Positions 1-58,737 of a DNA stretch of 64,000 bases are shown here, one piece after another; positions within the stretch are counted from its first letter, which is position 1; each line of letters begins with the position of its first letter. Under the pieces are notes generated by a model, which saw nothing but the letters and a program-made list of their open reading frames with translations, had not been told where the DNA came from and ran no database searches. The stretch is from the IMG/VR virus record IMGVR_UViG_3300045988_183115; one strand, given 5' to 3'. Position numbers and translations under genes: made by a program. The stretch is from a virus.

Positions 1-246
1 TTTGAAGTGGGTGAAGGAGACCATATTCATTGTTTTGTGTCAGCCCCACCCAAGCTGTCTGTCACAGATATTGTAAAATATTTAAAGGGAATCAGTGGCA
101 GGAAACTATTTGAAAAGTTCCCGGAAATCAGACAGAAATTATGGAAAGATCAGCTTTGGAATCATTCCTACTATGTGGGAACCATAGGTTCTGTGTCCGA
201 AGAGAACATACGGCGTTATATTGAACATCAGAGTAAATCTCATTAA
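1..246 (+). CDS. tnpA: IS200/IS605 family Y1 (HuH) transposase TnpA, C-terminal part; N-terminus lies upstream of the window
   Basis: Frame runs in from the window edge. FEVGEGDHIHCFVSAPPKLSVTDIVKYLKGISGRKLFEKFPEIRQKLWKDQLWNHSYYVGTIGSVSEENIRRYIEHQ matches the conserved C-terminal half of IS200 TnpA, including the HxH motif region. Confidence 0.85.
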   Translation, partial: FEVGEGDHIHCFVSAPPKLSVTDIVKYLKGISGRKLFEKFPEIRQKLWKDQLWNHSYYVGTIGSVSEENIRRYIEHQSKSH

Positions 247-259
247 GGAGGAAAAGAAC

Positions 260-1516
260 ATGCTGCTGTCACATAAGACAGATATTCAACTGAATACAAC
301 AGAGTCTAATATCGTAGGCCATATGTGCTATGCGGCATCTAAACTCTGGAACGTGTGCAACTATGAACGCCGTAATTTCAAGGAGCTTGGAATGGTCCAT
401 TACCCTGACTGGTATGATCAGAAAGCACGGTTAAAAGGAAATATGTGGTTCAAATCCCTGCCCTCGCAGACGGCGCAGGAAGTGTGCAAGCTGGTGGATA
501 AATCATGGAAGTCATTTTACGCACTGATAAAAAGTAAAGGCATCCAGAATCCAAAACCGCCAAGATTTAAACAAAGCGGTATGACAATTACCTATATGCA
601 GAATGCAATTGTACATGTACCTGGAAGCAAAAGGGTACGATTATCACTTTCGAAGCAGCTAAAGGAGTATCTGAAGCATACATATGACATCTGTGACAAC
701 TATCTGTATCTGGAAAATAAGATTTTCCAGAACACGGATGTCATCAAACAGATTAAGATATATCCACCGGATCAGAAAAATGTGTGTCAGGTTATCGTGA
801 TTTATGACGTAAAAGATGTGGAAAAAATGCAGGATAACGGACACTATTTATCGATTGATCTGGGTCTCCACAATCTGATGACCTGTTATGATTCTGTGGG
901 TACAAGTTTTATCCTTGGAAGAAAATATCTGGAAATCTCCCAGAAATATGATAAAGAAATCGCAAGACTTGGGCACCAATGGAACAGCTGTCAGTCAGCA
1001 GGAGGGATTAAGTATCCGAAGCCATCCAAACATATGCTTAAGGTATATAAGAAAAAGCGAAACTGTATTCACGACTATCTTCATAAAGTGACCAGAGCAG
1101 TAGTGAATTATTGTAAAGCAAATGATATCCACACGGTTATTATTGGTGATATCACAAATATTCGAAAGAATAAGAATCTGGGAAAAGTGACAAATCAAAA
1201 ACTTCATGGACTGCCTTATGCAAAAATATATGGAATGCTGGAGTATAAACTTGCAATGCATGGAATTACACTTGCGAAACAGACAGAAGAATATTCAAGC
1301 CAGTGTTCCCCACATGCACAACAAGTAACAAAAGAATATGCAAAGAAATGTAACAGAACGAACAGGGGATTGTATAAGGACAAGTTGTCAGTATATAATG
1401 CGGATGCAGTAGGGGCATATAACATTATGAAAAAATATTTTGCCAGATGCGGCAAAGAAAAAAAGATATCCGTTACCGGATTATCTTCTCCCCTGATCAT
1501 AAAAGTAGCTGTGTAA
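260..1516 (+). CDS. tnpB: TnpB (OrfB) RuvC-like RNA-guided endonuclease of IS200/IS605
   Basis: ATG at 260 follows AAGGAGG. RuvC-I is SIDLGLHNL, then a zinc-finger Cys cluster, then RuvC-III NADAVGAYNI. Length and layout are typical of TnpB. The ORF track starts earlier at 221. Confidence 0.85.
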   Translation: MLLSHKTDIQLNTTESNIVGHMCYAASKLWNVCNYERRNFKELGMVHYPDWYDQKARLKGNMWFKSLPSQTAQEVCKLVDKSWKSFYALIKSKGIQNPKPPRFKQSGMTITYMQNAIVHVPGSKRVRLSLSKQLKEYLKHTYDICDNYLYLENKIFQNTDVIKQIKIYPPDQKNVCQVIVIYDVKDVEKMQDNGHYLSIDLGLHNLMTCYDSVGTSFILGRKYLEISQKYDKEIARLGHQWNSCQSAGGIKYPKPSKHMLKVYKKKRNCIHDYLHKVTRAVVNYCKANDIHTVIIGDITNIRKNKNLGKVTNQKLHGLPYAKIYGMLEYKLAMHGITLAKQTEEYSSQCSPHAQQVTKEYAKKCNRTNRGLYKDKLSVYNADAVGAYNIMKKYFARCGKEKKISVTGLSSPLIIKVAV

Positions 1517-2996: not shown

Positions 2997-3014
2997 TTTT
3001 TCTGACATATATAT
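2997..3014 (+). promoter_or_regulatory. conserved promoter-like motif, CTGACAT variant
   Basis: TTTTTCTGACATATATAT lies 45 nt upstream of the ATG at 3047. Confidence 0.45.
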
Positions 3015-3046
3015 TACATCAATTAATTAAAGGAGGCGTATTCAAA

Positions 3047-3247
3047 ATGATAGAACATATTGTTTTTAATGTGCAGGCAAATAAAACTTTATCTGATACT
3101 AATGAATCATTCTATGGATGCTGGACAAAAGGGCATACATATGAATGTATAGCATTTGGCGATTTCGTATCAGTAAGAAATGATTCTGGGATGTATACAC
3201 AATTTACAAAAGAAGCTTTCGAAAAATTTAAAGATAAAATTGCGTAA
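3047..3247 (+). CDS. hypothetical small protein
   Basis: 66-aa ORF with AAAGGAGG RBS. Confidence 0.55.
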   Translation: MIEHIVFNVQANKTLSDTNESFYGCWTKGHTYECIAFGDFVSVRNDSGMYTQFTKEAFEKFKDKIA

Positions 3248-3263
3248 TATATAAGGAGGATTT

Positions 3264-4550
3264 ATGAAACAGGCAGATATAAATACAATACCAAATCATG
3301 AATATTTGGAACTTAATTATGTTGCAGAAACAGCTACAGGTAAAGGTAATAATCAACAGATTATTATGCAGGTTAATGCCAATAATAAGAATGTTTTTGA
3401 TGTTACTGAAGGTAGAATTGGAATCAGGATAGGAAGGAACAGGCCAAGGACATATTCACTTCCTATGACTAATTGGGATTCTTTTTATTTGTCTAAGGTA
3501 AATAGAGGTTGGTTGCTTACAAAGACTCAAAAAATGGAGAAAAAAAAGATTACAAAAAAAGGTTTAAGTTTTAATGGCGGTACATATGCACAGACTGGAA
3601 TTTTCTCTGTTGATTCTATTATAACAAAACTGCTTTCATACGCTAATAAGGTTATTTCAGATAATTATTCAACTTCAGTTGAAGATATTTCAGATGAGAT
3701 GCTTGAATATGGTAATTCGATTTTGACTGAATTAGCTAAGAACCATGATTCTATGTCAATTGCAGAGTTTAATAATAAATTAAAAGTATTATATGCTGCA
3801 ATTCCTAGAAGAATGGATAATTTATCTAAACATTTGGCTAAAAGAAAGATTGAATTTGTTGATATCATTGACAAAGAGCAGGAACTGTTTGATATTGTGT
3901 ATTCTCAGGTAAGATCTAATAGTAATTTAGCTAAATATAACACTATGCCAACAGTTCTTCAGGCCTATGGACTTGAATGGAGACCTGTATCTGACGAAGA
4001 AGAGACTAAAATCAAGAAGCTTATGGGAGAAAATGCAAAGCAATATAAAAATGCTTGGAGAATCATTAATAAAAAGACCGAAAAGGCTTTCAATGAATAT
4101 TGTGCTAAAGAAAATTTAAGTGATGAAAATAATGGAATATCTCATTTATTTCATGGTTCAAGATCAGAAAACTTCTGGTCCATTATAACTAATGGTTTAA
4201 CAATAAATCCAGTTGGAGTTGTAACTAATGGAAAGATGTTTGGATTAGGTACATATTTTGCTAATAAGGCAAAAAAATCGATGGGATATACTTCAAGCTC
4301 CGGTTCTTATTGGACTCATGGTAGTGAAGCAATTGGATATTTAGGCATTTTCAAAGTGGCTACTGGTAAAACATATGATGTAACATCTGCTGAAAGTGAT
4401 TTAACTTATAATGTTTTACAACAGAGATGTCCTGGCGCTCATTGTACTTTTGCTCATGCAGGCCATAGTTTATGTAATGATGAAATTATTGTATATCAGG
4501 ATCAGCAAAGTACTATAGAATATTTTGTTGAATTTACAGCAGCTCAGTAA
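3264..4550 (+). CDS. PARP-like ADP-ribosyltransferase (WGR-like N-terminal domain + helical region + PARP catalytic domain)
   Basis: C-terminal half carries the PARP H-Y-E signature in the canonical order: HGSRSENFWSIITNGL, then GLGTYFANKAKKS, then EIIVYQ. N-terminus has a WGR-like segment (TEGRIGIRIGRN). RBS is AAGGAGGA. Confidence 0.7.
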   Translation: MKQADINTIPNHEYLELNYVAETATGKGNNQQIIMQVNANNKNVFDVTEGRIGIRIGRNRPRTYSLPMTNWDSFYLSKVNRGWLLTKTQKMEKKKITKKGLSFNGGTYAQTGIFSVDSIITKLLSYANKVISDNYSTSVEDISDEMLEYGNSILTELAKNHDSMSIAEFNNKLKVLYAAIPRRMDNLSKHLAKRKIEFVDIIDKEQELFDIVYSQVRSNSNLAKYNTMPTVLQAYGLEWRPVSDEEETKIKKLMGENAKQYKNAWRIINKKTEKAFNEYCAKENLSDENNGISHLFHGSRSENFWSIITNGLTINPVGVVTNGKMFGLGTYFANKAKKSMGYTSSSGSYWTHGSEAIGYLGIFKVATGKTYDVTSAESDLTYNVLQQRCPGAHCTFAHAGHSLCNDEIIVYQDQQSTIEYFVEFTAAQ

Positions 4551-4562
4551 GGAGGAAATTTT

Positions 4563-4706
4563 ATGAAAAAGAAAAATATATATGAATTAAAACGAGCAGG
4601 TATATGCTGCGAAGAAGAAATGAAAAAAGTATATAGATTTTCTCCATTGCCTCCTGAGGCAATCACTTTTATAAATAATTTACATCAGAAAAAAATTAAT
4701 AAATAA
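4563..4706 (+). CDS. hypothetical small protein (47 aa)
   Basis: ATG follows AAGGAGGAAATTTT. Short, so low confidence. Confidence 0.35.
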   Translation: MKKKNIYELKRAGICCEEEMKKVYRFSPLPPEAITFINNLHQKKINK

Positions 4707-4871
4707 TGATTGTGTAAAGCGTAGAATTAATTATTCTACGCTTTATTTATTTTAATTCTGTCATATTATTATTAGCTAAAAATAAAGGAGCTAATTATAT
4801 TTTTTATAAAAAGGGTTCAGCGGTAACGGTAAGCATGATCTTACTTAGTCACGTTGAACTCTTTTTTTAAT

Positions 4872-4889
4872 ATTATCTGTCATATATAT
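4872..4889 (+). promoter_or_regulatory. conserved promoter-like motif
   Basis: TTATCTGTCATATATAT lies ~42 nt upstream of the ATG at 4925. Confidence 0.55.
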
Positions 4890-4924
4890 ATTAATATAAC
4901 TTTTTTTGACTATAAGGAGGACCT

Positions 4925-6139
4925 ATGGATAGAGAACAAGAAAGATTAAATACATCACTTTTATGTGGTTGGTCAGTAATAACAATAACACTATTAGGCA
5001 TTTATTTTGGTGAAATGTTAAAACATGCTATATCACCACCATATTTTGCAATATTTGCTATATTAATTAGTATCCCGAATTTAACAGGGTGGTTGGTTTT
5101 TATTTATAATAAAAACTGGCTATTTTTAAAATATTTTGTAACATTCTCGTTTTTAATAATGTATACATTTACCTTATTTACAGGAAATACTGTTTTATGT
5201 TTTACTTATATATTCCCAATTATCCTGCTTTTAATTTTATATTATGATCCAACTTTAATTATAGTAACCGGGTTATTTTCGACAGTGTTGAATATTACAG
5301 CAATATTTATTAAGACATATAATAAAATTGATAAATCAGGTGGCAAAGACATGGAGATTCAACTTGCAATAATTATTTTATGCTTTGCAGCAGCATATAT
5401 TGTTTCAAAGTTTTATAAAAGAAATACAGACCTAAATTTGCAAAATACACAAACAATAATAAATCAAATAGAACAAATTAATAAAATGTCTCTCCAAACA
5501 GTTACAACTATAGCAAATATTATCGATGCCAGAGATAATTACACCAAAGGCCATTCAACCAGAGTAGCAGATTATACAGCCTTATTAGCATATAAATTAG
5601 GAATGAATAAAAATGAGATTGAAGATATTCATTCAATAGCACTATTGCATGATATAGGAAAACTAGGAATTCCGGATAGCATATTAAACAAACCAGGAAA
5701 ATTAACAAATGAAGAGTACCAAGTAATGAAGAACCACACAGTAATAGGCGGAAATATCTTAAAAGATATGTCAATGCTTAAGGACATTGATTTAGGAGCA
5801 AAATATCATCATGAAAGATATGACGGAAAAGGATACCCAGATGGCTTAAAGGGAGAACAAATACCTTATATTGCAAGAATTATTTCTGTAGCAGATGCCT
5901 TTGACGCAATGACAAGTGACAGAGTATATAGGAAACATTTAGATTCAATAATTGTAGTTAATGAGCTTGAAAAGGGTAAAGGTACTCAATTTGATCCTGT
6001 AATTGCAGATGCTATGTTAAGTTTAATTAAATCTGAAAAAATTAAAATGAATTATAATGCTTTACTTGAAGAAATAGATTTAGCAGAAAATTTAAACGAA
6101 TTGTATCCAGAGAAAGAATTTTATGATGCAACAGAGTAA
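4925..6139 (+). CDS. membrane-anchored HD-GYP domain phosphodiesterase (cyclic-di-GMP / cyclic dinucleotide hydrolase family)
   Basis: About 5 N-terminal TM helices. HD domain motifs are KGHSTRVADYT and IALLHDIGKLGIP. The HHERYDGKGYPDGL stretch is the HD-GYP signature. Confidence 0.85.
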   Translation: MDREQERLNTSLLCGWSVITITLLGIYFGEMLKHAISPPYFAIFAILISIPNLTGWLVFIYNKNWLFLKYFVTFSFLIMYTFTLFTGNTVLCFTYIFPIILLLILYYDPTLIIVTGLFSTVLNITAIFIKTYNKIDKSGGKDMEIQLAIIILCFAAAYIVSKFYKRNTDLNLQNTQTIINQIEQINKMSLQTVTTIANIIDARDNYTKGHSTRVADYTALLAYKLGMNKNEIEDIHSIALLHDIGKLGIPDSILNKPGKLTNEEYQVMKNHTVIGGNILKDMSMLKDIDLGAKYHHERYDGKGYPDGLKGEQIPYIARIISVADAFDAMTSDRVYRKHLDSIIVVNELEKGKGTQFDPVIADAMLSLIKSEKIKMNYNALLEEIDLAENLNELYPEKEFYDATE

Positions 6140-6279
6140 TGTTAGATTTAATAAAAAAAATGATAATAACTTTGTAAAATGCTCATATATTAGAAACAAA
6201 AAGATGCAATATGGCAGAAAGGAGAATTGCTTCTTCCCTTATCTGAAGATAAGGGATTCAGTGATTAATAAATATTATT

Positions 6280-7413
6280 ATGAAAACAATAGAAAAAATT
6301 AAAATACAAGATAATACAATAGAGCATACAGAAAAACAAACCAGTTTATACGCATATTTGTATAATAAATTTCAAAATAAAATAATGGCTATTAACCTTC
6401 TTATAATAATCACAATATTTGTTTTTGAATTATTATTTATACCAATACATATAATAATAGAAAAACAAACAATAAATATATTATCTTATATTATATTGAA
6501 TGTATTTACACCTACTACATCTAATTTAATAATATGGTTTACCGGTAGACAAATCATAAGAAAATATCAAGATAATATTATACCAGAAATATATGAAGCC
6601 ATGCCTTTGTATATTTTAACTTTAATTATAGTGGTTTCAATTATCATTCATTATAATTATCCGGTATTATATACATTAATAGCCTGCCCAATTTTTATGT
6701 GTATTGTATATGGTAGTAACAAGGTTAATTGGCAATTATTTTTGATAAGTCAATTTGAAATTATTACAATTTCATTATCATCAATCTCTGAATTAAATAA
6801 GTTACCATCAAATTATTTAATATATATGTTTTTATCATGTATCATAACAATATTTGCATATATTTATTCGAGACTTGTTATTAAATATGAGAAAGAAAAA
6901 GAACTTAAACTGGTTTTATCTGAAAATAGAAATGCGCAATTATTAAAAGAAATTTCACAAGATGGATTAACTCGATTAGATAATTATAGGTCTCTTTTTA
7001 ATACAACAAAGAAATGGATATCATATAAGAAAAAACTTTATTTTTGTATAATAGATATAGATGATTTTAAATCAGTTAACGATACATATGGACATGAATT
7101 TGGAAATACTGTTTTAATTAATTTAGCTAAGGAACTTCAAAATATTAACCAATCAAATATTTTTGTCGCCAGATATGGAGGTGAAGAATTCGGAATATTA
7201 TTTGCAGATTATGAATATACTGAGGCGTATAATATAATTAACGATATCAGAATTAAATTCAACAATATTAAATATGAGAATATTCCGCAGCAATTTACTT
7301 TCTCTGGAGGAATAACAGAATATAAAAAAAATAATACCGTTCATGATTTATTTGATGCAGCAGATAAAAATTTATATAAAGCTAAAAGAACAGGCAAAAA
7401 TAAAATTATGTAA
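6280..7413 (+). CDS. membrane-anchored GGDEF-domain diguanylate cyclase
   Basis: About 6 N-terminal TM helices. GGDEF domain is DIDDFKSVNDTYGHEFGN followed by the active-site RYGGEEFGILF (GGEEF). No promoter motif of its own, so probably co-transcribed with the HD-GYP gene. Confidence 0.85.
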   Translation: MKTIEKIKIQDNTIEHTEKQTSLYAYLYNKFQNKIMAINLLIIITIFVFELLFIPIHIIIEKQTINILSYIILNVFTPTTSNLIIWFTGRQIIRKYQDNIIPEIYEAMPLYILTLIIVVSIIIHYNYPVLYTLIACPIFMCIVYGSNKVNWQLFLISQFEIITISLSSISELNKLPSNYLIYMFLSCIITIFAYIYSRLVIKYEKEKELKLVLSENRNAQLLKEISQDGLTRLDNYRSLFNTTKKWISYKKKLYFCIIDIDDFKSVNDTYGHEFGNTVLINLAKELQNINQSNIFVARYGGEEFGILFADYEYTEAYNIINDIRIKFNNIKYENIPQQFTFSGGITEYKKNNTVHDLFDAADKNLYKAKRTGKNKIM

Positions 7414-7426
7414 AAATTTGCAGTCA

Positions 7427-7444
7427 AAAATCTGTCATATAATA
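7427..7444 (+). promoter_or_regulatory. conserved promoter-like motif with no ORF downstream
   Basis: AAATCTGTCATATAAT. The next 200 nt contain no credible ORF and end in a terminator hairpin. Confidence 0.45.
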
Positions 7445-7645
7445 ATTAAATCAATATTGTATTATAATTTACAATGTGATAAAATATTGTCGGTATATAT
7501 TAGGCATACATATATGCCTCCTCAAAGACTAGCACTTTTGTTAAAGCCGGTAATTTTGTTGTAAAAATACACTTTAATAGAATTTTACAATTCTACTAGC
7601 AACTTTGATTAAAGCTCTCACCTTAATGGTGGGAGCTTTTTGTTA
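7445..7645 (+). ncRNA. candidate small non-coding RNA (promoter-to-terminator unit without ORF)
   Basis: Bounded by the motif at 7432 and the terminator at 7617..7645. Contains the perfect palindrome GGCATACATATATGCC (7504..7519). No tRNA-like features. Confidence 0.3.
7617..7645 (+). terminator. rho-independent terminator
   Basis: GCTCTCACCTTAATGGTGGGAGC followed by TTTTTG. Confidence 0.55.
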
Positions 7646-7662
7646 TTCTCTGTCATATTTAT
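7645..7662 (+). promoter_or_regulatory. conserved promoter-like motif
   Basis: TTCTCTGTCATATTTAT lies ~36 nt upstream of the ATG at 7692. Confidence 0.55.
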
Positions 7663-7691
7663 TGTGTAAATAAATATAAAGGAGAAAAATT

Positions 7692-10025
7692 ATGAGTTCT
7701 AAAAAACAACCACTTTATAATGATGATAAAAATATTCCACTAAAAAAACAGAAAAATCATCTTTTAACCATATTTAAAATTTTTATATTGATTATTATGA
7801 TAGTCATATTATTATCTTTAATATCATTATCAGTATTTTATATTAAATTTTACAGTAAATTCAAATTGGCACAGGAAAATGCATATGAGTCATTACAAAA
7901 TATGAACCAAAATGAATTTAATAAAGAACTGAATACATATTTTTATTATGATGATGGCACATTAATGGCAGCTAATATTAACGGCTCTTATGAATATGTT
8001 AATATCAGCGATGTCAGTGATTATATAATACAAGGATATATTGCTGTGGAAGATAAGAATTTCTATATTCATAAAGGTATTGATGCTAAAGCATTGTTAC
8101 GAGCTTCTTTGGCTTATATAAAGAATAAAGGGAAAATAACTCAGGGCGGCAGTACAATCACACAACAAGTTGTAAAAAATATTGTTATAAAAAATTCAGA
8201 CAAAACAATAGATAGAAAACTTACTGAAATGATAGCATCACTTGAAATGGAAAAGTCATATTCTAAAGAACAAATACTTGAAATGTATTTAAACTCTAAT
8301 TTCTACGGCAGCAATTGTTACGGAATTCAGGCAGCTTGTAAATATTATTTTGGATGTGATGCATCTGATGTAACAATATCTCAGGCCGCAATGTTAATAG
8401 GTATTTCAAATGCCCCTACAAAATATAATCCTGAAACAAATTATGAATTAGCAATATGTAAAAGAAATCAAGTCCTTAATACAATGTATAATCAGAAAAT
8501 AATTACAGAAAAACAATACAATGAAGCATTAGAAGATCCTCTTGATTTAATTTTATATAAAGAAACATCTGATTTACCAACATCTTATGAATTTTCATAT
8601 ACACTTAAATGTTCTATTGAATATCTTATGGAAATAAATGGATTTAATTTTAAATACCTTTTTGATTCTTCAGAAGATGAGCAAGATTATATTAATCAAT
8701 ATAATAAAATATACTCTAAGTACAAAGAAGAAATATTAACTGGAGGATACAGGATATATACTTCAATAGATAAAGATAAGCAGCTTGAGCTATTACAAAT
8801 TTCAAAAAATGTTTTATCACAATATGATAACAGCTTATCCGAGGATGGGCGGCATCTTCTTCAAACATCATCCATGTGTATTGATAATGAAACTGGATAT
8901 GTTAGAGCAATTATAGGTGGACAAGAAGATAATGAATATATAAATAGAGCATATCAATCTCCTAGACAACCAGGCTCTTCCATTAAACCAATATTAGATT
9001 ATGCTCCGGCTTTTGATATTTTAGACTATCATCCATCATCTATGATTTTGGATTCTCCACTTGAGGGTAAATATCAGCCTAAAAATCATGATGGATATTA
9101 CAGAGGCAATATTTCAGTAAGAACAGCTTTATTACAATCAGTCAATACAACGGCTGTTAAAACATTAATGAATGTTGGAATAAATAATTGTTTAGAGTAT
9201 TTAAATAAAATGCACTTTTATAATATTTCATATGAAGATAATAATAATGCTGCAATTGCCATAGGTGGTTTTACAAATGGTGTAACAGTAGAAAACATGA
9301 CTAAAGCATACAATGCATTAGCTAATAATGGTAAATACAATAATAATACATGCATCAAACATATGTTGCGTCAAAATGAAGAAATATATCAAAATAAAGA
9401 AGATATTCAAGTATATAAAAAAGGCACCGCTTATATGATGACAGATTGTTTAATTTCAAATTTTACAGAAGGATACGTCAAAAATTATCAAATAGATAAT
9501 CAGATTTGTGCAGGAAAAACTGGAACAACGAATGATAACAAGGACTCTTGGCTATGTGCATATACACCATATTACACAACATGTATATGGACCGGATATG
9601 ATATTCCTAAAAATTTTGATAATGGTTCAGCAATATGTGGAGAAATATGGAAGCAGTTTAATGAATATTTGCACCAGAATTTAGATAATAAGGAATTTGA
9701 GAAACCTGAAACTATTTATGAGCATTATATTGACTGGGAAGGGAAAAAATGTAATTATAATTCTGGTAAAAAAGATTTTTTTCAAATCGATTTTCCTAAT
9801 TATGAAAAGGCCAGTTTTTGTTACAAAAAAGCATATGATGCTTTAAAAGAAGCTGAGAATACTAATATTTCAGATTATAAAACTGCTAATACTGTTATAA
9901 AAAGTCTTGATGATGTTATTATCGATAAGAACGCATTAACTGATCAACAAGAAATTGATGCTATAAATAAATACTGGGATGAAATATATAATAATATTTT
10001 AATAAAAAGACAACAGTTTGGATAA
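7692..10025 (+). CDS. bifunctional class A penicillin-binding protein (GT51 transglycosylase + transpeptidase) with N-terminal TM anchor
   Basis: GT51 motifs are [20 protein letters not shown] and [10 protein letters not shown]. Transpeptidase motifs are SSIK (SxxK), SVN (SxN) and KTGTT (KTG). Confidence 0.85.
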
Positions 10026-10043
10026 ATCTTTAACATATACTGT

Positions 10044-10061
10044 TTTTTCTGTCATATATTT
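10044..10061 (+). promoter_or_regulatory. conserved promoter-like motif
   Basis: TTTTTTCTGTCATATATT lies ~56 nt upstream of the ATG at 10111. Confidence 0.55.
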
Positions 10062-10110
10062 TTTATCAATAAATTTAATGGAGAATAACTCCAAGAAGGG
10101 AGTCTTATAT

Positions 10111-10398
10111 ATGAGACATTTTAAGAAGGCAAAAGAAGAATTAATTCCTTATATTAACAAAATTCTTGAAAAAAAGAATATTGATTATTTCTATAGAGAT
10201 AACGAAATAATTGTAGATTTATCCGGGAATCAGTTTCATAAGATTGTTACACGAGCTAAGTGCGAAATGCTTAATGAAAAGGATGGGTTGGATAACAGAC
10301 ATACATATTATGTATCCAAAGCAGAAAATATTGCCCGCTTAATGAGCGACAATCCGGAATATGAATTCTTTATAGAATATCCATATAATCCAGATTAA
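10111..10398 (+). CDS. hypothetical protein
   Basis: ATG preceded by AAGAAGGGAG. The ORF track's longer 10018 start lacks an RBS and overlaps the promoter motif. Confidence 0.55.
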   Translation: MRHFKKAKEELIPYINKILEKKNIDYFYRDNEIIVDLSGNQFHKIVTRAKCEMLNEKDGLDNRHTYYVSKAENIARLMSDNPEYEFFIEYPYNPD

Positions 10399-10506
10399 AT
10401 AATTTTGAAAATTAGAACTATTTGTTTAGCTACCTTAAAATGTCTTTATAGACTTTTTAGGGTAGCTTTTTTTGTTCGCACATTGCGAAGAAAGGAACGC
10501 TGCACT

Positions 10507-11154
10507 ATGGCAGAATTAAATGAAATTATGTCAGACAAAAAGGCTGGCACATATAAAAAGGATTTTTTTAATGTAGCATCATATATCGAAAAATTTTATG
10601 ATGCAGAAGAATATCTTTTCAATTTCGAAGCTAATGATTTGGTTGAAACCAGATCAGGAGCAAATGATTATGTTGAGGAACATACTCCTCATGTGCTACA
10701 ACATATAGCTCCAGAAATTTCATGGGCTATAAATAAAATTTCTGAAGCTACAAAAGAAAAGAAAGGAATTAAAGGCGCTAAGAATGGTACCTTCCATCCT
10801 ACATGGTTTGATTCATTAGAAAGTGCATCTGAAGCATTAGAGAGAGTTTTAATTGCTTCAAATAATACCTCTATTATTTCTAAAATTCAGAACTGGTGTG
10901 AGGATAGAGATATTTATTACAACGACAGAAGACATAATCGTTTAGTTATAGATATAGTATCTAATACGGTTATAGGAAAAGGAATTGTAAAAGGTACAAA
11001 TTATGATATTCCTTTTGACTGTCATGGACTTCATATTGTTTTAGAATATACAATTTCTAAAAAAGATGGAGAATTTGCAGTCTATGATATGTATCCATAT
11101 TTCACAGAAGAGGATTGGAGCATAATTAAAAAAGCTAAAAATAAAAAATCTTAA
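10507..11154 (+). CDS. hypothetical protein
   Basis: ATG at 10507 (MAELNEIM) preceded by AAAGGAAC. Upstream extension to 10405 is unlikely. Confidence 0.5.
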   Translation: MAELNEIMSDKKAGTYKKDFFNVASYIEKFYDAEEYLFNFEANDLVETRSGANDYVEEHTPHVLQHIAPEISWAINKISEATKEKKGIKGAKNGTFHPTWFDSLESASEALERVLIASNNTSIISKIQNWCEDRDIYYNDRRHNRLVIDIVSNTVIGKGIVKGTNYDIPFDCHGLHIVLEYTISKKDGEFAVYDMYPYFTEEDWSIIKKAKNKKS

Positions 11155-11156
11155 GC

Positions 11157-11188
11157 AAAAACAGTCATCATTTGATGGCTGTTTTTTA
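11157..11188 (+). terminator. rho-independent terminator
   Basis: AACAGTCATCATTTGATGGCTGTTTTTTAT. Confidence 0.55.
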
Positions 11189-11210
11189 TATTGTTTTTCA
11201 AAAAATATTT

Positions 11211-11228
11211 TTTAACTGTCATATATTT
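11211..11228 (+). promoter_or_regulatory. conserved promoter-like motif
   Basis: TTTAACTGTCATATATTT lies ~46 nt upstream of 11268. Confidence 0.55.
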
Positions 11229-11267
11229 ATTAATTAAGATTTTAATTTAAGGAGTTAAATAGATATT

Positions 11268-11882
11268 ATGTTTATTAATGTACCATGTATTGAAAATACC
11301 AAAAAAGAAAATGGACTGTATTCATATGAATTAAAATTCCCAGATATCATACAAGAAAACAAAAAGCATATAATACAAAATTCAAGACTTTCTGAAAATA
11401 ACAAAATTGATTTAAGTGGAACACTTGCATATAACAATAATTATTATAATTTATTTTCAGATAAAAACAGATTATTCGTTTTTAATTTTCAATCAAGTGA
11501 TTTTTATATTATTGATCAGGAAGAAAGTTATTATGAACGAAAAAAATATTTCTATAGAACAATTAGAGATGGAGAAAATGTCTATTCATTATATGAATCA
11601 AAATTATTTAATAAAAATCTTATGTGTATTAAAAAAAATAATAAAATTATTGTTGTTGTATTACAGTCAATTAATCATGAAACAAAAATATACAATAAAT
11701 TCTTTTGCTTAGAAAAGAATAAAAGAAATATATCTTATAATTGCAAAATTAATAACGATGAAAATAATTTTATTATTTATGCGCTAATCACAATAGGACA
11801 CTATGATTGCGTAAAATATTCTAGTAAATTCATAGAATTACAAGACACAAGTAAATGGATAGAATGGTTTTCTAAACACTAA
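11268..11882 (+). CDS. hypothetical protein
   Basis: 204-aa ORF with AAGGAG RBS. The overlapping ORF 11416..11712 in another frame is judged spurious. Confidence 0.55.
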   Translation: MFINVPCIENTKKENGLYSYELKFPDIIQENKKHIIQNSRLSENNKIDLSGTLAYNNNYYNLFSDKNRLFVFNFQSSDFYIIDQEESYYERKKYFYRTIRDGENVYSLYESKLFNKNLMCIKKNNKIIVVVLQSINHETKIYNKFFCLEKNKRNISYNCKINNDENNFIIYALITIGHYDCVKYSSKFIELQDTSKWIEWFSKH

Positions 11883-11948
11883 TTTAAACAATCACAGCAT
11901 TTAAGATTTTAATTTAAGAAACAGTATCATATTTTTTATCTTATTTTA

Positions 11949-11966
11949 TATTTCTGTCATTCAATA
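11949..11966 (+). promoter_or_regulatory. conserved promoter-like motif
   Basis: ATATTTCTGTCATTCAAT lies ~38 nt upstream of 11998. Confidence 0.5.
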
Positions 11967-11997
11967 TATATGATAACAAAGCCAAAGGAGAAAAATT

Positions 11998-12213
11998 ATG
12001 AAGAAGAGATATCAAAAAATGATAGGTGACAGAAAAATATTAATGCCAATTACAGATGCACAACAATTAATGGTAATAGCAGATGATTTTTGTGTATTAA
12101 ATGATAACAGAACTCAGGATTCTATTATTAATATTATTTGCGGAAGCAAAACATATAATGATGGATTGAGAAAAGTAATCGATATTATTGATGCAACTGT
12201 ATTGGCATCTTAA
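11998..12213 (+). CDS. hypothetical protein
   Basis: 71-aa ORF with AAAGGAGA RBS. First gene of a 4-gene unit without internal promoter motifs. Confidence 0.5.
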   Translation: MKKRYQKMIGDRKILMPITDAQQLMVIADDFCVLNDNRTQDSIINIICGSKTYNDGLRKVIDIIDATVLAS

Positions 12214-24372: not shown

Positions 24373-25467
24373 ATGGGAAGACCACCAAAGAATATTAATA
24401 CCGAAACACAGGGTAACGAATCAATTTCAAATGACAAATTAAAAGCACTTGATGCTGCAATGTTAGAAATTGAAAAGACCTATGGCAAAGGTTCTGTCTT
24501 TAAATTAGGTGATACAAAGAAATTAAATGTTGAAACATTTTCATCAGGTTCCTTAGCACTGGATCAGGCTTTAGGCGGAGGAATTCCAAAAGGAAGAATT
24601 ATAGAAGTATTTGGCCCGGAATCAAGTGGTAAAACAACTTTAACCTTGCATATGATTGCAGAAATACAAAAAAATGGTGGAATTGCCGGGTTTATTGATG
24701 CTGAACATGCATTAGACCCTGTTTATGCTTCTAATTTAGGTGTGGATATAAATAATTTATATATTTCACAGCCAGACAGCGGAGAACAGGCTTTAGAAAT
24801 AGCAGAAACAATGGTAAGATCCGGAGCTTTAGATTTGGTTGTAATAGATTCTGTAGCAGCTCTTGTACCTAAGGCAGAAATTGATGGAGAAATGGGGGAT
24901 TCACATGTTGGATTACAAGCAAGACTTATGTCGCAGGCTTTAAGGAAACTGACTCCCGTTGTAAGTAAAAGTAATTGTTCAGTTATTTTTATTAATCAGT
25001 TAAGAGAAAAGGTTGGAATTATGTTTGGCAACCCAGAAACAACAACTGGGGGACGAGCATTAAAGTTTTACTCTTCTGTAAGAATTGATGTACGAAGAAT
25101 TGAGTCAATTAAGGAAGGCGGAGCTATTGTTGCTAACAGAACAAAAGCAAAGGTAGTTAAAAATAAAATAGCTCCTCCATTTAAGGAGGCAACATTTGAA
25201 ATTTCATTTGGTAAAGGTATAGACAAGAATGGTGAAATAATTGATTTAGCTGTTGAACATGGATTTATCAATAAAACTGGAGCTTGGTTTACAGATGCAG
25301 AAGATTCTAGTTTAAGATGGCAGGGCAGAGCAAATGCTAAATTATATATAGAAGAGCACTCGGAATATAAAGATAAATTAGAAACTTTAATCAGAAAAAG
25401 ACTTAAGGGAGAAGACGACATTTCACCCTTTATTGAAAAAAATATAAAAAATGTAATTGATGAGTAA
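24373..25467 (+). CDS. recA: RecA recombinase
   Basis: Walker A is [18 protein letters not shown] is present. L1/L2 region [15 protein letters not shown]. Length 364 aa. Colinear with bacterial RecA. Confidence 0.95.
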
Positions 25468-31223: not shown

Positions 31224-32798
31224 ATGGGAATTGAAGTAACGATTGGAATTGTAGTAGCGGTGGTTGTAGTATTAATTGCATTATTATTTGCAAGTTATAT
31301 TAAGGCTCCGACAGACAAGGCACTTATTGTATCAGGACTTAGAAAGACACCTAAGTATGTTATCGGAAGGTCATCACTTAAGATACCATTTTTACAGAGA
31401 GTAGATAAGCTTGATTTAAAGATGATTTCTGTTGATGTAAAGACAAAGGAATCAGTACCAACAAATGAGTATATTAATGTTAATATTGATTCTGCTGTAA
31501 AGATTAAGATTGGTTCATCACCTGAAATGCTTGGAAAGGCTGCAAGTAACTTCCTTAATAAAAATTCAGATTATATCAGAGAATCAGTTGTAGATGTACT
31601 TGAAGGTAATGTCCGTGAAATTATAGGACAGATGAAGCTTGAGGATATTGTACAGGACAGAAAGTTATTTGCTGAAAAGGTACAGGAGAATGCTGCTCCT
31701 GATATGGAAAGAATGGGTCTTGAAATTGTAAGCTTTAATGTTCAGAATGTTACAGATGAAGGTAATGTTATTGAAAACCTTGGTATTGACAGGGTTGTAA
31801 GTATCAGTAAGTCAGCACAGATATCAAGAGCAGAATCAGAAAGAGATATTGCAGTTGCAAAGGCTAATGCTGAAAAGCAGGCTAATGATGCAAGAATTGA
31901 AGCTGAGACAGCTATTGCAGAAAGAAATAATGAACTTGAGATTAAGAAGCAGGAATTAAAGAGAGCAGCAGATGTTAAGAAGGCTGAAGCTGATGCGGCA
32001 TATGAAATCCAGCAGCAGGAACAGAGAAAGACAATTGAAATCACTACTGCCAATGCTAATATTGCAAAGCAGGAAAAGGAAATTGAATTAAGAGAAAAGG
32101 AAATCACTGTTAAGGAAAAAACACTTGATGCTGATATCCGTAAGCAGGCCGAAGCTGAAAAGTATGCAGCACAGCAAAAGGCAGATGCAGAACTTTATCA
32201 GAGACAGAAGGAAGCAGAAGCAAAGCAGTTTGAAATTCAGAAGCAGGCTGAAGCTAAGAAATCACAGGCAGAAGCAGACAGATTTGCTAAGGAACAGGAA
32301 GCTGAAGCAGTAAAGGCACAGGGCTTTGCAGAAGCAGAGAGTATTAAGGCAAAAGGTGTTGCTGATGCTGAAAGTATTAAGGCAAAAGGATTAGCTGAAG
32401 CTGAAGCTATGGAGAAGAAAGCAGATGCAATGGCTAAGTATGGTAAGGCTGCCATGACTGAAATGATTATCAAAGTACTTCCAGAGATGGCAGGAGCTAT
32501 TGCAAAGCCATTAGAAGCCATTGATAAGGTAACTATTATTGACAGTGGTAATGGTGAAACCGGAGTAGGTTCATTTAGCAGTAATGTACCATCAGTACTT
32601 GCAAAGACAATTGAATCTGTTAAGGAAACAACTGGTTTTGACCTTACAGAAGTAATGAAGGCTAATACATATGATGCCAAGACAACAAAGAATGTGAACT
32701 TTACAGGCATTCCAGAAGATGTTGACCCGGAGATTAAGGTAACTGTAAAGAATGTTCCTGAGAAAGTGTCTAAGTCAGAAAAGAATTCTACTAAGTAA
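31224..32798 (+). CDS. flotillin-like SPFH/band-7 protein with long EA-repeat coiled coil
   Basis: N-terminal TM segment. SPFH domain is YIKAPTDKALIVSGLRK...GLEIVSFNVQNV. A long AEAEA/KAKG repeat coiled coil follows, as in FloT/YuaG-type flotillins. Confidence 0.8.
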   Translation: MGIEVTIGIVVAVVVVLIALLFASYIKAPTDKALIVSGLRKTPKYVIGRSSLKIPFLQRVDKLDLKMISVDVKTKESVPTNEYINVNIDSAVKIKIGSSPEMLGKAASNFLNKNSDYIRESVVDVLEGNVREIIGQMKLEDIVQDRKLFAEKVQENAAPDMERMGLEIVSFNVQNVTDEGNVIENLGIDRVVSISKSAQISRAESERDIAVAKANAEKQANDARIEAETAIAERNNELEIKKQELKRAADVKKAEADAAYEIQQQEQRKTIEITTANANIAKQEKEIELREKEITVKEKTLDADIRKQAEAEKYAAQQKADAELYQRQKEAEAKQFEIQKQAEAKKSQAEADRFAKEQEAEAVKAQGFAEAESIKAKGVADAESIKAKGLAEAEAMEKKADAMAKYGKAAMTEMIIKVLPEMAGAIAKPLEAIDKVTIIDSGNGETGVGSFSSNVPSVLAKTIESVKETTGFDLTEVMKANTYDAKTTKNVNFTGIPEDVDPEIKVTVKNVPEKVSKSEKNSTK

Positions 32799-36027: not shown

Positions 36028-36128
36028 ACATATAAACTTTTTTAGGAAAGAATTATAATAATGGACTTAATAAAAATTAAAAAATCATATCAAAATAAAA
36101 ACAAAGCAATTTGGAGGTCAACAAAATA

Positions 36129-36995
36129 ATGATTAAACAAATTACAAAGATTATTGGAATAGTATTTGCCTTTCTTATTACTCAAATTGTATGTACATTG
36201 GGCGTATTTATTTTTAAATTGTTTTCTGATTCACAATGGTATGATAATTTATATGTATGTATAGAAACAGGTAATTTACTTTCATATAGTTATCTTAGTA
36301 TGCTCAGTGAATTAATTATGCCTGCATTATTTGTTTCCGATATTATAATACTTGGGTTTGTTATGCTTAAAGAATATAAAGTTAATAAATCAATCATATT
36401 TATTTCAAAATTATCATTAAAAGATGTCAAGACATTTATTTTAACAGGCATTATTATGAATTTTTTAGCTTCTGTGGTAATAGATTCCTTACCTAATAAT
36501 TTGGTTTCTAATTCATATAATTCTTTGATGAATGTTGCTGTAACCGGAAATTGGCTTCAAGTACTCTTAATAACAGGTGTTATTACGCCAGTTGTTGAAG
36601 AATTAATATTTAGATACGGTATTACAAAAATAATAAAGCAAAACAAATTCTTTAAGAAACCAGATGTAAGCTCAATTTATATATCAGCTTTCGTTTTTGG
36701 ATTAGTACATTTTAATATTATTCAAAGCACTTATGCATTTATTTTCGGTATTATATTAGCCTATGTATATATAAAAACAGATAATTTATTGTCCTCTATT
36801 TTAATTCATATTGGAGTTAATGCAAGTAGTGTATTGTACTCTTTTATGCCTGTTATGTTACAAAATATTTGTCTAATCGTAATGAGTATTATATTTTTCA
36901 TAATTGTTATCAGAAATATTTTAGTAATAAGAAATAACAGTTCACATTCTAATGTAAATAATTTTCTGTCATATCTTCTTTATCAAACAAAATAA
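36129..36995 (+). CDS. CPBP (CAAX protease / Abi) family intramembrane metalloprotease
   Basis: Multi-TM protein. The conserved motifs are EELIFRYGI (EExxxR) and FGLVHFN (HxxxN/H). ATG at 36129 follows GGAGG. Confidence 0.75.
   Translation: MIKQITKIIGIVFAFLITQIVCTLGVFIFKLFSDSQWYDNLYVCIETGNLLSYSYLSMLSELIMPALFVSDIIILGFVMLKEYKVNKSIIFISKLSLKDVKTFILTGIIMNFLASVVIDSLPNNLVSNSYNSLMNVAVTGNWLQVLLITGVITPVVEELIFRYGITKIIKQNKFFKKPDVSSIYISAFVFGLVHFNIIQSTYAFIFGIILAYVYIKTDNLLSSILIHIGVNASSVLYSFMPVMLQNICLIVMSIIFFIIVIRNILVIRNNSSHSNVNNFLSYLLYQTK
36961..36978 (+). promoter_or_regulatory. conserved promoter-like motif (extended subclass) overlapping the 3' end of the CPBP gene
   Basis: AATTTTCTGTCATATCTTCTTTATCAAACAAAATAAAGGAG; the motif lies inside the last codons of 36129..36995. 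Confidence 0.55.
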
Positions 36996-38505: not shown

Positions 38506-39069
38506 ATGGATAAAAAGACAATAATTGCAGTTATAGGAAAGACATCAAGTGGCAAAGATACAGTCGCAAAAGTATTAAATGAAAAATATGGAATTCCTTC
38601 AGTTGTTTCAATGACAACCAGACCAAAAAGAGAATATGAGACAAATGGTGTAGAACATATATTTATTTCAAAGGAAGAAATGAGCAATATTTTAAAAGAA
38701 AAAACAATCATTGCTTATACAAAAAATGATAAAACTGGAATAGAATATTGTGCTGCATTAGAAGCTTTGCCATCAAATACATGTGTATACATTATAAATC
38801 CAGATGGCGTTAAATGGTTAAAAGAGCATAATAAGCATAATTTGTTTAATTTAATTTGCGTATATGTTGATTTGGCTGAGGATAAAATAATTAAAAGAGG
38901 ACTTCTAAGAGGAGATAATCCTGATACTTTGCGAATACGCTTGGAGAGTGAAAGAGAGGAATTTGATGCATATAAAAATTCAAAGGAATATGATTTCTTA
39001 ATAACTAATGATAAGGATTTGCAATATTTGTATCATCAGGTTGATTTATTTTATTCGAAATATTTTTAA
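38506..39069 (+). CDS. guanylate kinase-like nucleoside monophosphate kinase
   Basis: P-loop is VIGKTSSGKDT. SMTTRPKREYETNGVEHIFISKEEM matches the guanylate kinase signature TTRPxRxxExxGxxYxFxSxEEF. Confidence 0.65.
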   Translation: MDKKTIIAVIGKTSSGKDTVAKVLNEKYGIPSVVSMTTRPKREYETNGVEHIFISKEEMSNILKEKTIIAYTKNDKTGIEYCAALEALPSNTCVYIINPDGVKWLKEHNKHNLFNLICVYVDLAEDKIIKRGLLRGDNPDTLRIRLESEREEFDAYKNSKEYDFLITNDKDLQYLYHQVDLFYSKYF

Positions 39070-43053: not shown

Positions 43054-44847
43054 ATGTCAATGTTTGAACATGTAAAAATTGGAGAATTAACAAAAAAGGT
43101 TATTGAGTCAGGAGTTACAGTGTGTGAACATAACCATCCAGGAGGCTCTTTGTTTGATGCCGTAGATGAACCTAAAAGTTATTTAGATGCTGCATTTAAT
43201 GCAGGATATACTAAATTTGCTGTTACGGACCATGCATCATTTTCAGCAATGCAAACATGTATTGATTACGCTAAGAAAATAAGTACTGAGGAACATCCTT
43301 TTAATATCATTTATGGCGTAGAGGCTTATATTGAAGTGCCACCATTTAAGATAAATGAGCAGATTGGCCATATGATTATGTTAGCCACTTCAGAAAGAGG
43401 CAAACATATTATTGATAAGTTAAATTCTAAGGCTTCTGAAAAAAGAATGGGAAAGCCTGTTATTACAATATCAGATTTAAAGAAATATAACTTTAACGGT
43501 GATATAATAGCAACTTCTGCTTGCGTTTCGGGTGCACCAGCTCTGCAATTATTATCAGATGATGTTTTGGATAAAATGATTAACAGAGAAAGAAAAGCAC
43601 AGCAGCATACTACTGAAAAAGACGAGCTAGTTATACGTGATTGTATAAGTCCTGATGATAAAGAATATCTTTCAGCTAAAGATGAATTTGAAAGGGTATC
43701 GGCAGATTTAGATGAATTGATTAATATTCGTGATTCCAAGGAACTTAAATCAGAAAGAACACAGATTTCAAGAAAATTAAGAGATGCAAGAAAGTGTTTA
43801 AATGATGATGATCCAGAGCTTATTAAACTGATTAACGAATATGAGGAGATAAATAATAAAATTCTGGAAGCTAAAGATAAAATTCCTAATGTCAGAAAAT
43901 TAGTTAATGCTAAGAAAGCCGAGTTAAAGGATATAAGTCTTAAAGTAGAGGAATATATTAATCATGAAAATAAGATACAGCATTATGAATCATTAAAGAA
44001 AAGCCCAATAGAATTAATGTCTGAAGCAGAAAAGACAATGCTTTTTTATCAGGAAATTTTTGGAGCAGGTAATTATTACATTGAAGTTCAGAATCATGGG
44101 CTTGAAATGGAAAGCAGAACATATCCTGTGTTAGCTCAGTTAGCAAGGAAGCATAATATCCCATTAGTTGCTGCTAATGATGCACATATGGCAGATAATT
44201 CTGATAGAAGTATTGATATGCGTAATGTAGCTAAATTTTTAAGATTTATTAAGATAAGTGAGTCGGAATCAGATAAAGAGTTATATGTAAAAACACCTTA
44301 CGAACTTGCTCAGGCCTTATCAGCTATATTAACAGATGATCAGGTTGCAGAAGCACTCAATAACTTAAATGTAATTGGAAAAAGATGTGCTTATATTCCA
44401 GAAAAATCTAATCATTATCCAGTATTTGATAAGAACAAGGACTCAAACGAATTATTAAGATCTGAAGCAATTAAGGGAATTAATTGGAGATATCCTAACG
44501 GGAAAGGATGGGATGAAGAACATCAGAAACGAATGGAATACGAACTTAATATTATCATTCAGATGGGCTTTGCCGATTATCATTTAATTGTAAAGGACTT
44601 CCTGGAATATGGAAGAATTTGTGGATTAGTACCTATGGATAAACTATCAGAAGTACCTTTAACAATTGAAGGTGCAAAAGAGTATGTTAAGGCTCACAAT
44701 TATAATACCGGAATTGGAATAGGCATTGGAAGAGGTTCAGGTGCCGGTTCATTGGTTACATATTTACTTGGTATTACCGGAATTGATCCATTTAAGTATA
44801 ATCTGATTTTTGAACGATTCTTAAATCCAGAAAGAGTAAGTATGCCT
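43054..44847 (+). CDS. dnaE: DNA polymerase III alpha (DnaE-type), exon 1: PHP domain + coiled-coil insert + palm N-part, up to the SMP of the SMPDxDxD motif
   Basis: PHP-like N-terminus. [15 protein letters not shown] and [15 protein letters not shown] match Dna[41 protein letters not shown] matches the DnaE palm. The ORF reads through into the intron to 44895. Confidence 0.8.
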
Positions 44848-58465: not shown

Positions 58466-58737
58466 AGGTAGTGGGCTTCTGTTAAATGGTTCACCAGACT
58501 AAGTATTCAGAAATGGATACTACGATATTTAGGTTATGATACCTTCGGTTGACGCAACAGACCGTTGCTCTATCGTACATATTTAAGTTAGGTCAGAGTA
58601 AGAACAGCCTTGTGATATGTACATAAAAGCCTTTATATCATTGTCGAGTTGAAGTCGGAACAATCGTATGGTAAACAGTACGACAAAGTACGCATCACCT
58701 ACTATTAAGTAGAGTATTTATAAGGAGGAACTTATTT
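58466..58737 (+). ncRNA. putative IscB omega RNA scaffold (IS left-end region upstream of iscB)
   Basis: A 270-nt GC-enriched, ORF-free stretch lies immediately 5' of iscB and begins with an imperfect hairpin. This is the position where IscB omega RNAs are known to be encoded. No tRNA features. Confidence 0.5.

Follow-up and report, generated by a model that had tools for sequence, protein, structure and literature searches.

Why would a phage-like element carry, side by side, genes for two membrane proteins that resemble the enzymes with which bacteria break down and make cyclic di-GMP (c-di-GMP)? The question is raised by a 64,000-nucleotide (nt) stretch of viral DNA, IMG/VR record IMGVR_UViG_3300045988_183115 (the window), in which an earlier note had pointed out consecutive HD-GYP and GGDEF genes at 4925–7413. 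To our knowledge, few viruses or giant mobile elements have bacterial second-messenger enzymes of their own, with no tested case in gut Firmicutes. We favour, with a probability of roughly 55%, reading the pair as a c-di-GMP source-and-sink module of host origin, anchored in the membrane and expressed from the element's own promoter, which would reset host signalling. This reading draws on domain identity, residue conservation, synteny, purifying selection, fold prediction and motif statistics.

Both open reading frames (ORFs) and their domains are found as the earlier note had described them. The HD-GYP gene (4925–6139, + strand) encodes a membrane-anchored phosphodiesterase-type protein of 404 amino acids (aa) that matches Pfam HD_5 (5.5e-39; residues 196–359, nt 5510–6001) and HD (2.2e-20). 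The GGDEF gene (6280–7413, + strand) encodes a membrane-anchored cyclase-type protein of 377 aa that matches Pfam GGDEF (6.8e-33; residues 227–375, nt 6958–7404). Hydropathy and AlphaFold models show, in each protein, six hydrophobic helices ahead of the catalytic domain. In the HD-GYP protein the six transmembrane (TM) helices span residues ~2–165 and are followed by a long linker helix to ~190 and then the HD-GYP domain; those of the GGDEF protein span residues ~36–200, ahead of the GGDEF domain.

Residue roles in the HD-GYP domain were assigned by alignment to the reference structure PmGH from Persephonella marina (PMC4159591), whose metal ligands are E185, H189, H221, D222, H250, H276, H277 and D305. 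Seven of these eight ligands are kept (H210, H242, D243, H271, H295, H296 and D324), as are the equivalents of PmGH D183 and K225 (D204 and K246), and Tyr206 stands at the eighth position, that of E185. This is the one ligand known to vary, and Tyr or Phe there defines the 'Y/F' subfamily, which Bellini et al. expect to be without the tri-iron centre (PMC4159591). The HD dyad at 242–243 and the HHERYDGKGYP stretch at 295–305, both recognized in the earlier note, are confirmed: H242-D243 and H295-H296-E297-R-Y-D-G-K-G303-Y304-P305, with the G303-Y304-P305 triplet kept, conform to the HD + HHExh(D/N)GxGYP definition of the family (bioRxiv 10.1101/2021.11.05.467447). The guanine-recognition motif is R333-V-Y-R336, the canonical Rxx(K/R) c-di-GMP type, and the key residues, RxxR included, are invariant in 31 homologs. 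HD-GYP enzymes of the PmxA type, which prefer cyclic GMP-AMP (cGAMP), carry Rxx(Q/N) in place of Rxx(K/R) (bioRxiv 10.1101/600031), and no such motif is found in the 404-aa protein, which reads RVYR. The top solved matches of the protein, V-cGAP3 (5.9e-41) and PmGH (1.9e-40), are essentially tied, so this match has no discriminating power. Judged from its residues, the domain is most likely of phosphodiesterase type, with c-di-GMP as the likely substrate. It shares with PmGH and the Y/F subfamily the HD motif, HHExxDGxGYP, the seven ligands, RxY[K/R] and the Tyr at the E185 position, and differs in being fused directly to a 6-TM domain without a Pfam family and in being borne on a giant phage-like element.

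The GGDEF domain keeps D259 (equivalent to the metal-binding D327 of PleD), K264, N267 (PleD N335), R298, the motif G300-G-E-E-F304 and K369. The alignment that the earlier note had proposed as a check for lost catalytic residues therefore finds the GGEEF glutamates in place, along with seven of the eight HD-GYP metal ligands. No RxxD inhibitory site (I-site) is found five residues N-terminal to the GGDEF motif, where QSNI stands, and the whole clade to which the protein belongs is without the site. Such a site is common in diguanylate cyclases, not obligatory.

The membrane domains were described in the earlier note as unlike anything recognized. At the level of sequence families this stands, as the isolated TM domains of both proteins have no Pfam match even at E ≤ 10; the predicted fold, by contrast, has known relatives. 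Both domains are conserved across homologs, and the polar residues that are invariant in the TM domain of the 31 HD-GYP homologs include N9, W16, E30, Y40, N123, E144 and Q146. AlphaFold models of the isolated domains (pLDDT 82.5 and pTM 0.72 for the HD-GYP protein; pLDDT 89.7 and pTM 0.83 for the GGDEF protein) are both six-helix bundles in which the last helix continues as a long linker toward the catalytic domain. For either TM domain, the predicted fold is the 6-TM one known from membrane adenylyl cyclases (class III) and from ImcA, a 6-TM + GGDEF diguanylate cyclase of Pseudomonas aeruginosa (PDB 8wcn), with paired fold-comparison values of 14.3 and 10.5 for Adenylyl cyclase 9, 13.2 and 10.1 for Adenylyl cyclase 5, 13.2 and 12.3 for ImcA, and 10.8 and 7.9 for Rv1625c of Mycobacterium tuberculosis. 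Profile–profile comparison of the two TM domains with each other is weakly positive (67%, E 5e-5).

The dimer interface of ImcA is built by its 6-TM domain, which the enzyme needs for cyclase activity and through which it contacts a membrane partner (PMC10904736). We take ImcA as the best available model for both TM domains, by fold resemblance and not by demonstrated family membership: TM identity is 8–12%, with no sequence-level family link. ImcA is also part of a chromosomal iron-responsive module, unlike the element cyclase, which moreover carries Asn and Tyr at its specificity positions (below). Given the shared adenylyl-cyclase-type fold, contact between TM domains might by analogy join the HD-GYP and GGDEF proteins in one synthase/hydrolase switch, as the halves of a mammalian cyclase are joined.

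The earlier note had proposed that the two genes share one promoter motif at 4877. The motif is real and far above chance: the window has 27 copies of CTGTCATAT where 0.81 are expected, and shuffles never reached more than 4. Nearly all copies (26/27) are on the + strand, and 17 of those 26 lie 34–52 nt 5′ of a start codon, often directly after a hairpin and T-run; sites include 4758, 4877, 7432, 7650 and 10049 and extend to 57480. The motif usually follows a T-rich run, and the copy at 4877–4885 (+ strand) lies 48 nt before the HD-GYP ATG, which itself has a strong Shine-Dalgarno sequence, AAGGAGG, read from the sequence 4 nt upstream (4914–4920, + strand). Directly 5′ of this copy, and 3′ of the one at 4758, is a terminator-like hairpin with a T-run (4804–4870, + strand); the fold of 4767–4872 reaches −29.8 kcal/mol (z −5.07, with 0 of 200 shuffles as stable). 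We infer that this hairpin is a terminator-like boundary that would shield the module from upstream transcription.

The two genes are separated by a 140-nt spacer (6140–6279, + strand), in which motif and terminator scans found no copy of CTGTCATAT and no terminator-like site. A single transcript is therefore the simplest reading, and coupling of the two genes is supported by a related element, L003, in which they overlap by 11 nt. The HD-GYP and GGDEF genes are thus probably one transcription unit read from the 4877 motif, which makes the proposed shared promoter plausible. The first terminator-like site 3′ of the GGDEF gene is a hairpin with a T-run at 7611–7639 (+ strand; 12-bp stem with 6 GC pairs), in a region (7500–7648) whose fold has a z of −5.22. 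It lies between the next two motif copies, at 7432 and 7650, and read-through transcripts of the module would probably end there. A scan for sigma-70 consensus promoters returned fewer sites than in shuffles, which is uninformative in AT-rich DNA. The spacer also contains a hairpin without a T-run, CCCTTATC-TGAA-GATAAGGG, at 6236–6255, and an AAAGGAG followed by a TTG-initiated mini-ORF of 14 codons whose end lies 10 nt 5′ of the GGDEF ATG; as a candidate structured RNA the spacer was rejected, with a fold z of −1.85 that is not significant.

The placement of CTGTCATAT and of hairpins with T-runs makes most genes of the window resemble single promoter-to-terminator units. Seven copies of the motif are accompanied by TTATGTAAA ~20 nt further upstream, which suggests two promoter classes, and a sigma-70-type factor is encoded within the window itself (55214–56242). 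Two short motif-to-terminator units lie on either side of the module (4758–4870 and 7432–7639; z −5.1 and −5.2), neither with a convincing ORF. Small RNAs are one possibility, leftovers of lost genes another; the unit at 4758–4870 carries an AAAGGAG without a standard start codon behind it.

Both genes have relatives among gut bacteria. Full-length homologs of the HD-GYP protein, TM domain included (45–51% identity, >90% coverage), are abundant in gut Clostridia and come from Roseburia, Lachnospiraceae, Acetatifactor, Ruminococcus and Eubacterium; the closest genome match is a Roseburia sp. metagenome-assembled genome (JBNMKU010000006, 51% identity). Full-length homologs of the GGDEF protein, from Lachnospiraceae and Clostridium, are 35–37% identical over 93%, with 95 clusters of 50% identity at E ≤ 1e-30. 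In part of the bacterial homologs a soluble GGDEF domain is fused to the HD-GYP or comes after it, with fusions of 560–707 aa in 22 of the 120 best matches; at two bacterial genome loci a separate GGDEF gene directly follows the HD-GYP gene, and one bacterial GGDEF homolog adjoins a flagellin gene. From these sequences, both genes probably descend from ordinary host signalling proteins captured from Lachnospiraceae. The Lachnospiraceae proteins with TM and HD-GYP domains, the probable gene source, have the same end-to-end arrangement of 6-TM and HD-GYP domains. Many of them have a C-terminal or adjacent soluble GGDEF domain, which the element copy is without; there, the HD-GYP gene is followed instead by a separate 6-TM GGDEF protein of another family. 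Capture appears to be old, because the GC content of the module (23–29%) is like that of the element and unlike that of the Lachnospiraceae and Ruminococcus loci with the closest homologs (44–49%). Compared with a strain variant of 98.4% identity, codons differ more often synonymously than non-synonymously in all three genes examined (28:3 for HD-GYP, 8:3 for GGDEF and 16:6 for the neighbouring penicillin-binding protein (PBP) gene), an excess that indicates purifying selection on the module genes.

Gene order is also partly conserved. In the window the order is PARP, HD-GYP, GGDEF, PBP. In the related elements L003 and L004 it is HD-GYP, GGDEF, PBP and, further on, PARP, with aa identities of 59, 56, 62 and 78%, respectively, and in L011 and L012 it is HD-GYP (68%), a 69-aa ORF, a Zn phospholipase C and PBP (67%). 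Synteny of HD-GYP with PBP is thereby kept in three diverged element lineages (the window, L003/L004 and L011/L012). The conserved neighbour, a class A PBP of 777 aa with transglycosylase and transpeptidase domains (7692–10025, + strand; Pfam Transgly 1.2e-56 and Transpeptidase 1.8e-22), has its own motif copy at 7650 and matches phrog_33002 (2.6e-46), a PHROG of unknown function. It appears intact, with EDxxFxxHxG, GGSTITQQ, SxxK, SxN and KTG all present, and its counterparts lie at 3939–6461 in L003 and 2470–5148 in L011. The protein with a PARP catalytic domain (3264–4550, + strand; 428 aa; Pfam PARP 1e-18, phrog_23333 6e-31) is encoded 5′ of the module in the window and 3′ of the PBP gene in L003.

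On the favoured reading, the two genes would be read as one transcript from an element promoter, and a 6-TM domain of the adenylyl-cyclase/ImcA fold would insert each protein in the host membrane. On the cytoplasmic side, the HD-GYP domain, with a two-metal 'Y/F-type' centre, would hydrolyse c-di-GMP, and dimerized GGDEF domains would condense two nucleotide triphosphates. Such a regulated source and sink could reset the host c-di-GMP level during infection or carriage and alter, for example, flagellar motility, adhesion or the properties of the envelope. Conservation of the class A PBP next door hints at the cell envelope.

Several observations weigh against this reading. An Rfam scan of the window at the gathering threshold and at E ≤ 1 found no riboswitch near the genes, its sole real match being a HEARO RNA at 58446, and no PilZ domain, hence no nearby c-di-GMP effector, was found among the ~50 ORFs scanned. 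The earlier description of the module as self-contained is not fully borne out: any output must use host effectors. The net effect of an opposing synthase and hydrolase is not predictable without their regulator. The GGDEF ATG has no Shine-Dalgarno sequence. In the HD-GYP protein, a TM1–TM2 loop motif that is near-invariant in the 31 homologs, other element-borne copies included (E-x-x-K-G-x-R-[ST]), is degraded: residues 29–37 (nt 5009–5035) read GEMLKHAIS, with the loop Gly and Arg lost and KGxR[ST] replaced by KHAIS. The GGDEF gene is absent from the L011/L012 lineage, and on a 103-kb viral contig (L033, IMGVR_UViG_3300045988_182851) a related HD-GYP protein is reduced to its last 85 residues (7977–8252; 73% identity), among unrelated neighbours, in what looks like a decayed copy. 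Virion hallmarks (capsid, terminase, portal and tail) were not found among the ~50 window ORFs or the 10 ORFs in the next 10 kb of the matching IMG/VR contig. To these are added two substitutions in the cyclase domain.

The cyclase site, called intact in the earlier note, is so in its GGEEF motif at 300–304 and not in two other residues. Asn276 stands at the position of PleD D344 and aligns with IsPadC D581 and the corresponding Asp of DgcR, and Tyr236 (in DGLTRLDN-Y-R) aligns with the cross-dimer Arg, IsPadC R537. The Asp at the first position binds the Watson–Crick face of guanine and is reported to be essential (PMC7288161), and it is conserved in strict c-di-GMP producers (PMC7288161, PMC9140294). 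The cross-dimer Arg stacks on guanine and is present in 94% of predicted cyclases; Hypr enzymes, which make cGAMP, have Ser or Thr at the PleD-D344 position, and one of them, GacA, has Ser348 there and Tyr304 at the IsPadC-R537 position (PMC6456294). With Asn276 in place of the guanine-binding Asp and Tyr236 in place of the cross-dimer Arg, the product of the cyclase is uncertain and may be other than c-di-GMP, or nothing.

The two substitutions occur together well beyond the element. Among the best 120 GGDEF homologs, 33 are Asn-type with GGEEF, and none of the 33 has the cross-dimer Arg, compared with 46 of the 81 Asp-type proteins; in a set of 145 proteins, each representing a 50%-identity cluster, the Arg occurs in only one of 55 Asn-type members and in 26 Asp-type ones. 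His rather than Arg is frequent at the cross-dimer position of Asp-type Firmicute relatives. Because the same Asn/Tyr state is common to a large natural clade, it is, by this comparison, not decay. Close full-length homologs are a mixture of interspersed Asp- and Asn-types, which would mean either that the swap is neutral for GTP use or that specificity has switched repeatedly. The Asn-type clade consists of ~360-aa 6-TM GGDEF proteins of Clostridia, always with GGEEF-type motifs (proteins P0121–P0166 and P0241–P0380), and a partial literature search found no published assay of an Asn-type enzyme. Assignment of the element cyclase to the Hypr group was considered and rejected, as Asn276 with GGEEF falls outside the definition of Ser/Thr with GGDE[F/Y] (PMC6456294). 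The protein resembles the Hypr enzymes that make 3′3′-cGAMP (GacA and Bd0367) in its GGDEF fold, in deviating at the same specificity position and, as in GacA, in its Tyr at the cross-dimer position; it differs in having Asn with GGEEF, where those have Ser/Thr with strictly GGDE[F/Y], and in being without a Rec or GAF input domain and without an I-site.

These residues are the basis of a less probable account, in which the GGDEF protein belongs to an uncharacterized specificity class that, in the manner of Hypr enzymes, would use ATP or ATP + GTP to make 3′3′-cGAMP, cyclic di-AMP or another dinucleotide. The module would then inject a signal other than c-di-GMP, remove it through the HD-GYP protein and, with the PBP, impose a foreign messenger on the envelope programme of the host. 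Both known specificity determinants deviate together, Asn and loss of the Arg co-vary (0/33 and 1/55 Asn-type proteins with Arg), Tyr236 is the residue of the cGAMP synthase GacA, and the top solved match of the HD-GYP protein is V-cGAP3. Asn is also of the same length as Asp and would fit GGEEF under the 'Goldilocks' model, with an amide that could pair with either purine. However, the interleaving of Asp and Asn is also expected from a neutral, function-preserving swap, many Asp-type relatives among the Firmicutes have His where the cross-dimer Arg would be, the Hypr state is Ser/Thr with GGDEF only, and the partner HD-GYP protein has a guanine-type RxxR. That same RxxR bears on the suggestion, also made in the earlier note, that the hydrolase interferes with cyclic-oligonucleotide immune signalling. 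It would destroy host cyclic oligonucleotides (CBASS or type III CRISPR signals), with the GGDEF protein incidental or a decoy. Such a role has been predicted for jumbo-phage HD-GYP enzymes by Iyer et al. 2021 (PMC7824862), and a homolog in the Microcystis jumbo phage MaAM05 is annotated accordingly; V-cGAP3 is a 3′3′-cGAMP phosphodiesterase, V-cGAPs too carry the canonical recognition motif, and Lar, a DNA methylase and the PARP protein nearby form a conflict-related gene set. We nevertheless do not favour this idea and hold it to be unlikely: the motif is RxxR and not the RxxQ/N of cGAMP-selective enzymes (bioRxiv 10.1101/600031), the match to the c-di-GMP-specific PmGH is equally good, and the protein is a full-length copy of a sensor architecture common in Lachnospiraceae, with a conserved 6-TM domain, of which no deposited phage HD-GYP protein covers ≥80%. 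Its conserved neighbours are a cyclase and a PBP, not anti-defence genes, and PADLOC found no match in either protein or in eight other window ORFs, seven of them nearby.

Least probable, in our view, is that the genes are passenger cargo, recently captured in a variable region rich in insertion sequences and without a specific role, or that they encode non-catalytic sensors or scaffolds. The surroundings give this some colour, with an IS605 TnpA fragment and TnpB at the start of the window (7–1516), an IS3-type insertion in a sister scaffold, and Mob_Pre and NERD genes upstream of the module; so do the absence of GGDEF in L011, the HD-GYP remnant in L033, the lost TM-loop motif and the missing, reportedly essential Asp of the cyclase. 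Against it stand the strong synonymous excess, synteny kept at ~60% aa identity, a GC content that makes the capture old, an element-type promoter of the module's own, and the retention of all other catalytic residues. Returning to the c-di-GMP source-and-sink module, if both proteins are plain c-di-GMP enzymes it is a routine host-derived accessory. The main added value lies in tying the module to a giant gut element of very high prevalence and in the Asn-type clade, a large natural GGDEF group in which both known substrate-specificity positions are altered together and which offers a testable lead on non-Hypr dinucleotide makers. The element is very common in human gut metagenomes, and a module that resets the motility, adhesion or envelope of Lachnospiraceae could matter ecologically.

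Phages and mobile elements were already known to carry GGDEF and HD-GYP genes, and the module is a further example. HD-GYP enzymes occur across jumbo-phage groups, where they are predicted to degrade immune nucleotides (Iyer et al. 2021, PMC7824862). Deposited phage records include 30 with an HD-GYP match and 87 with a GGDEF match, the jumbo phages MaAM05 and SP-15 among them, and IMG/VR has 24 or more HD-GYP loci and 362 or more GGDEF stretches; neither the HD-GYP nor the GGDEF protein is covered to ≥80% by any deposited phage record. With the jumbo-phage HD-GYP enzymes, the 'diguanylate cyclase' of the Bacillus jumbo phage SP-15, and DgcK and DgcL of SXT/R391 ICEs (integrative and conjugative elements), the module has in common a mobile or viral GGDEF or HD-GYP gene presumably acting on host nucleotide signalling. 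It differs from these phage and ICE enzymes in that an opposing pair is adjacent, both proteins are 6-TM anchored, HD-GYP is syntenic with PBP, and the cyclase is of the Asn/Tyr variant.

What is the element itself? That the module lies in a mobile or phage-like region, as the earlier note had supposed, is borne out: a 95-kb IMG/VR viral contig matches the window at 98.4% identity, and the first 13 kb of the window are 99.3% identical to a 463,335-bp human-gut scaffold, in which the HD-GYP gene appears split, at an assembly gap of Ns and not by mutation. Megablast of 3000–12000 against deposited phages and plasmids gave no match. The RecA gene of the window (24373–25467) has 98–100% identical variants in hundreds of gut metagenome assemblies, on scaffolds of 349–667 kb (L198–L207) that are often the longest of their sample, and its product is 73–75% identical to Lachnospiraceae RecA. 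The window has a GC content of 23–37%, nearly all genes on one strand and many ORFs without any family match. Besides RecA, its replication and repair genes encode two UvrD-type helicases, RecJ, a 5′–3′ exonuclease and a DnaG-type zinc ribbon, and other bacterial-type genes encode a sigma-70 factor, guanylate kinase, DNA methylase and Lar. DnaE, the DNA polymerase III alpha subunit, is split in three ORFs (43054–44895, 45785–46543 and 52093–53778) that jointly cover the PHP, NTPase, finger, HhH and OB domains; the first gap holds an HNH/NUMOD4 homing endonuclease gene (45104–45622), and the second, of ~5.5 kb, holds seven genes, including those for an RlaP-like nucleotidyltransferase and the 5′–3′ exonuclease.

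Membership in IMG/VR, PHROG replication families, the HNH-split DnaE, one-strand gene arrays and the repeated promoter motif are phage-like traits. The element is probably a giant phage-like element of gut Clostridia with Lachnospiraceae as its host, where the phage label follows from the IMG/VR classification and the gene organization and the host is inferred. A giant plasmid-like replicon is possible. A very small bacterial genome is less likely: the RecA identity and the very long scaffolds would suit it, but most ORFs are without a family, DnaE is split by a homing endonuclease, tRNA and ribosomal genes are absent from the 64 kb, and almost all genes come with the same promoter motif and a terminator.

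Other cargo in the window includes an SPFH/flotillin protein, two CAAX (Rce1-like) membrane proteases, the guanylate kinase and a CdiA-CT-like protein (31224–32798, 36111–36995, 53891–54802, 38506–39069 and 10405–11154); the match to the CdiA-CT RNase A domain is weak (4.6e-05, below the Pfam cut-off). The extra IS3-type insertion of the sister scaffold L001 lies at a position matching ~13160 of the window. Toward the far end of the window, the HEARO RNA (58446–58659; 110 bits against a gathering threshold of 83) is followed by an IscB-like ORF with RRXRR and HNH domains at 58738–59997.

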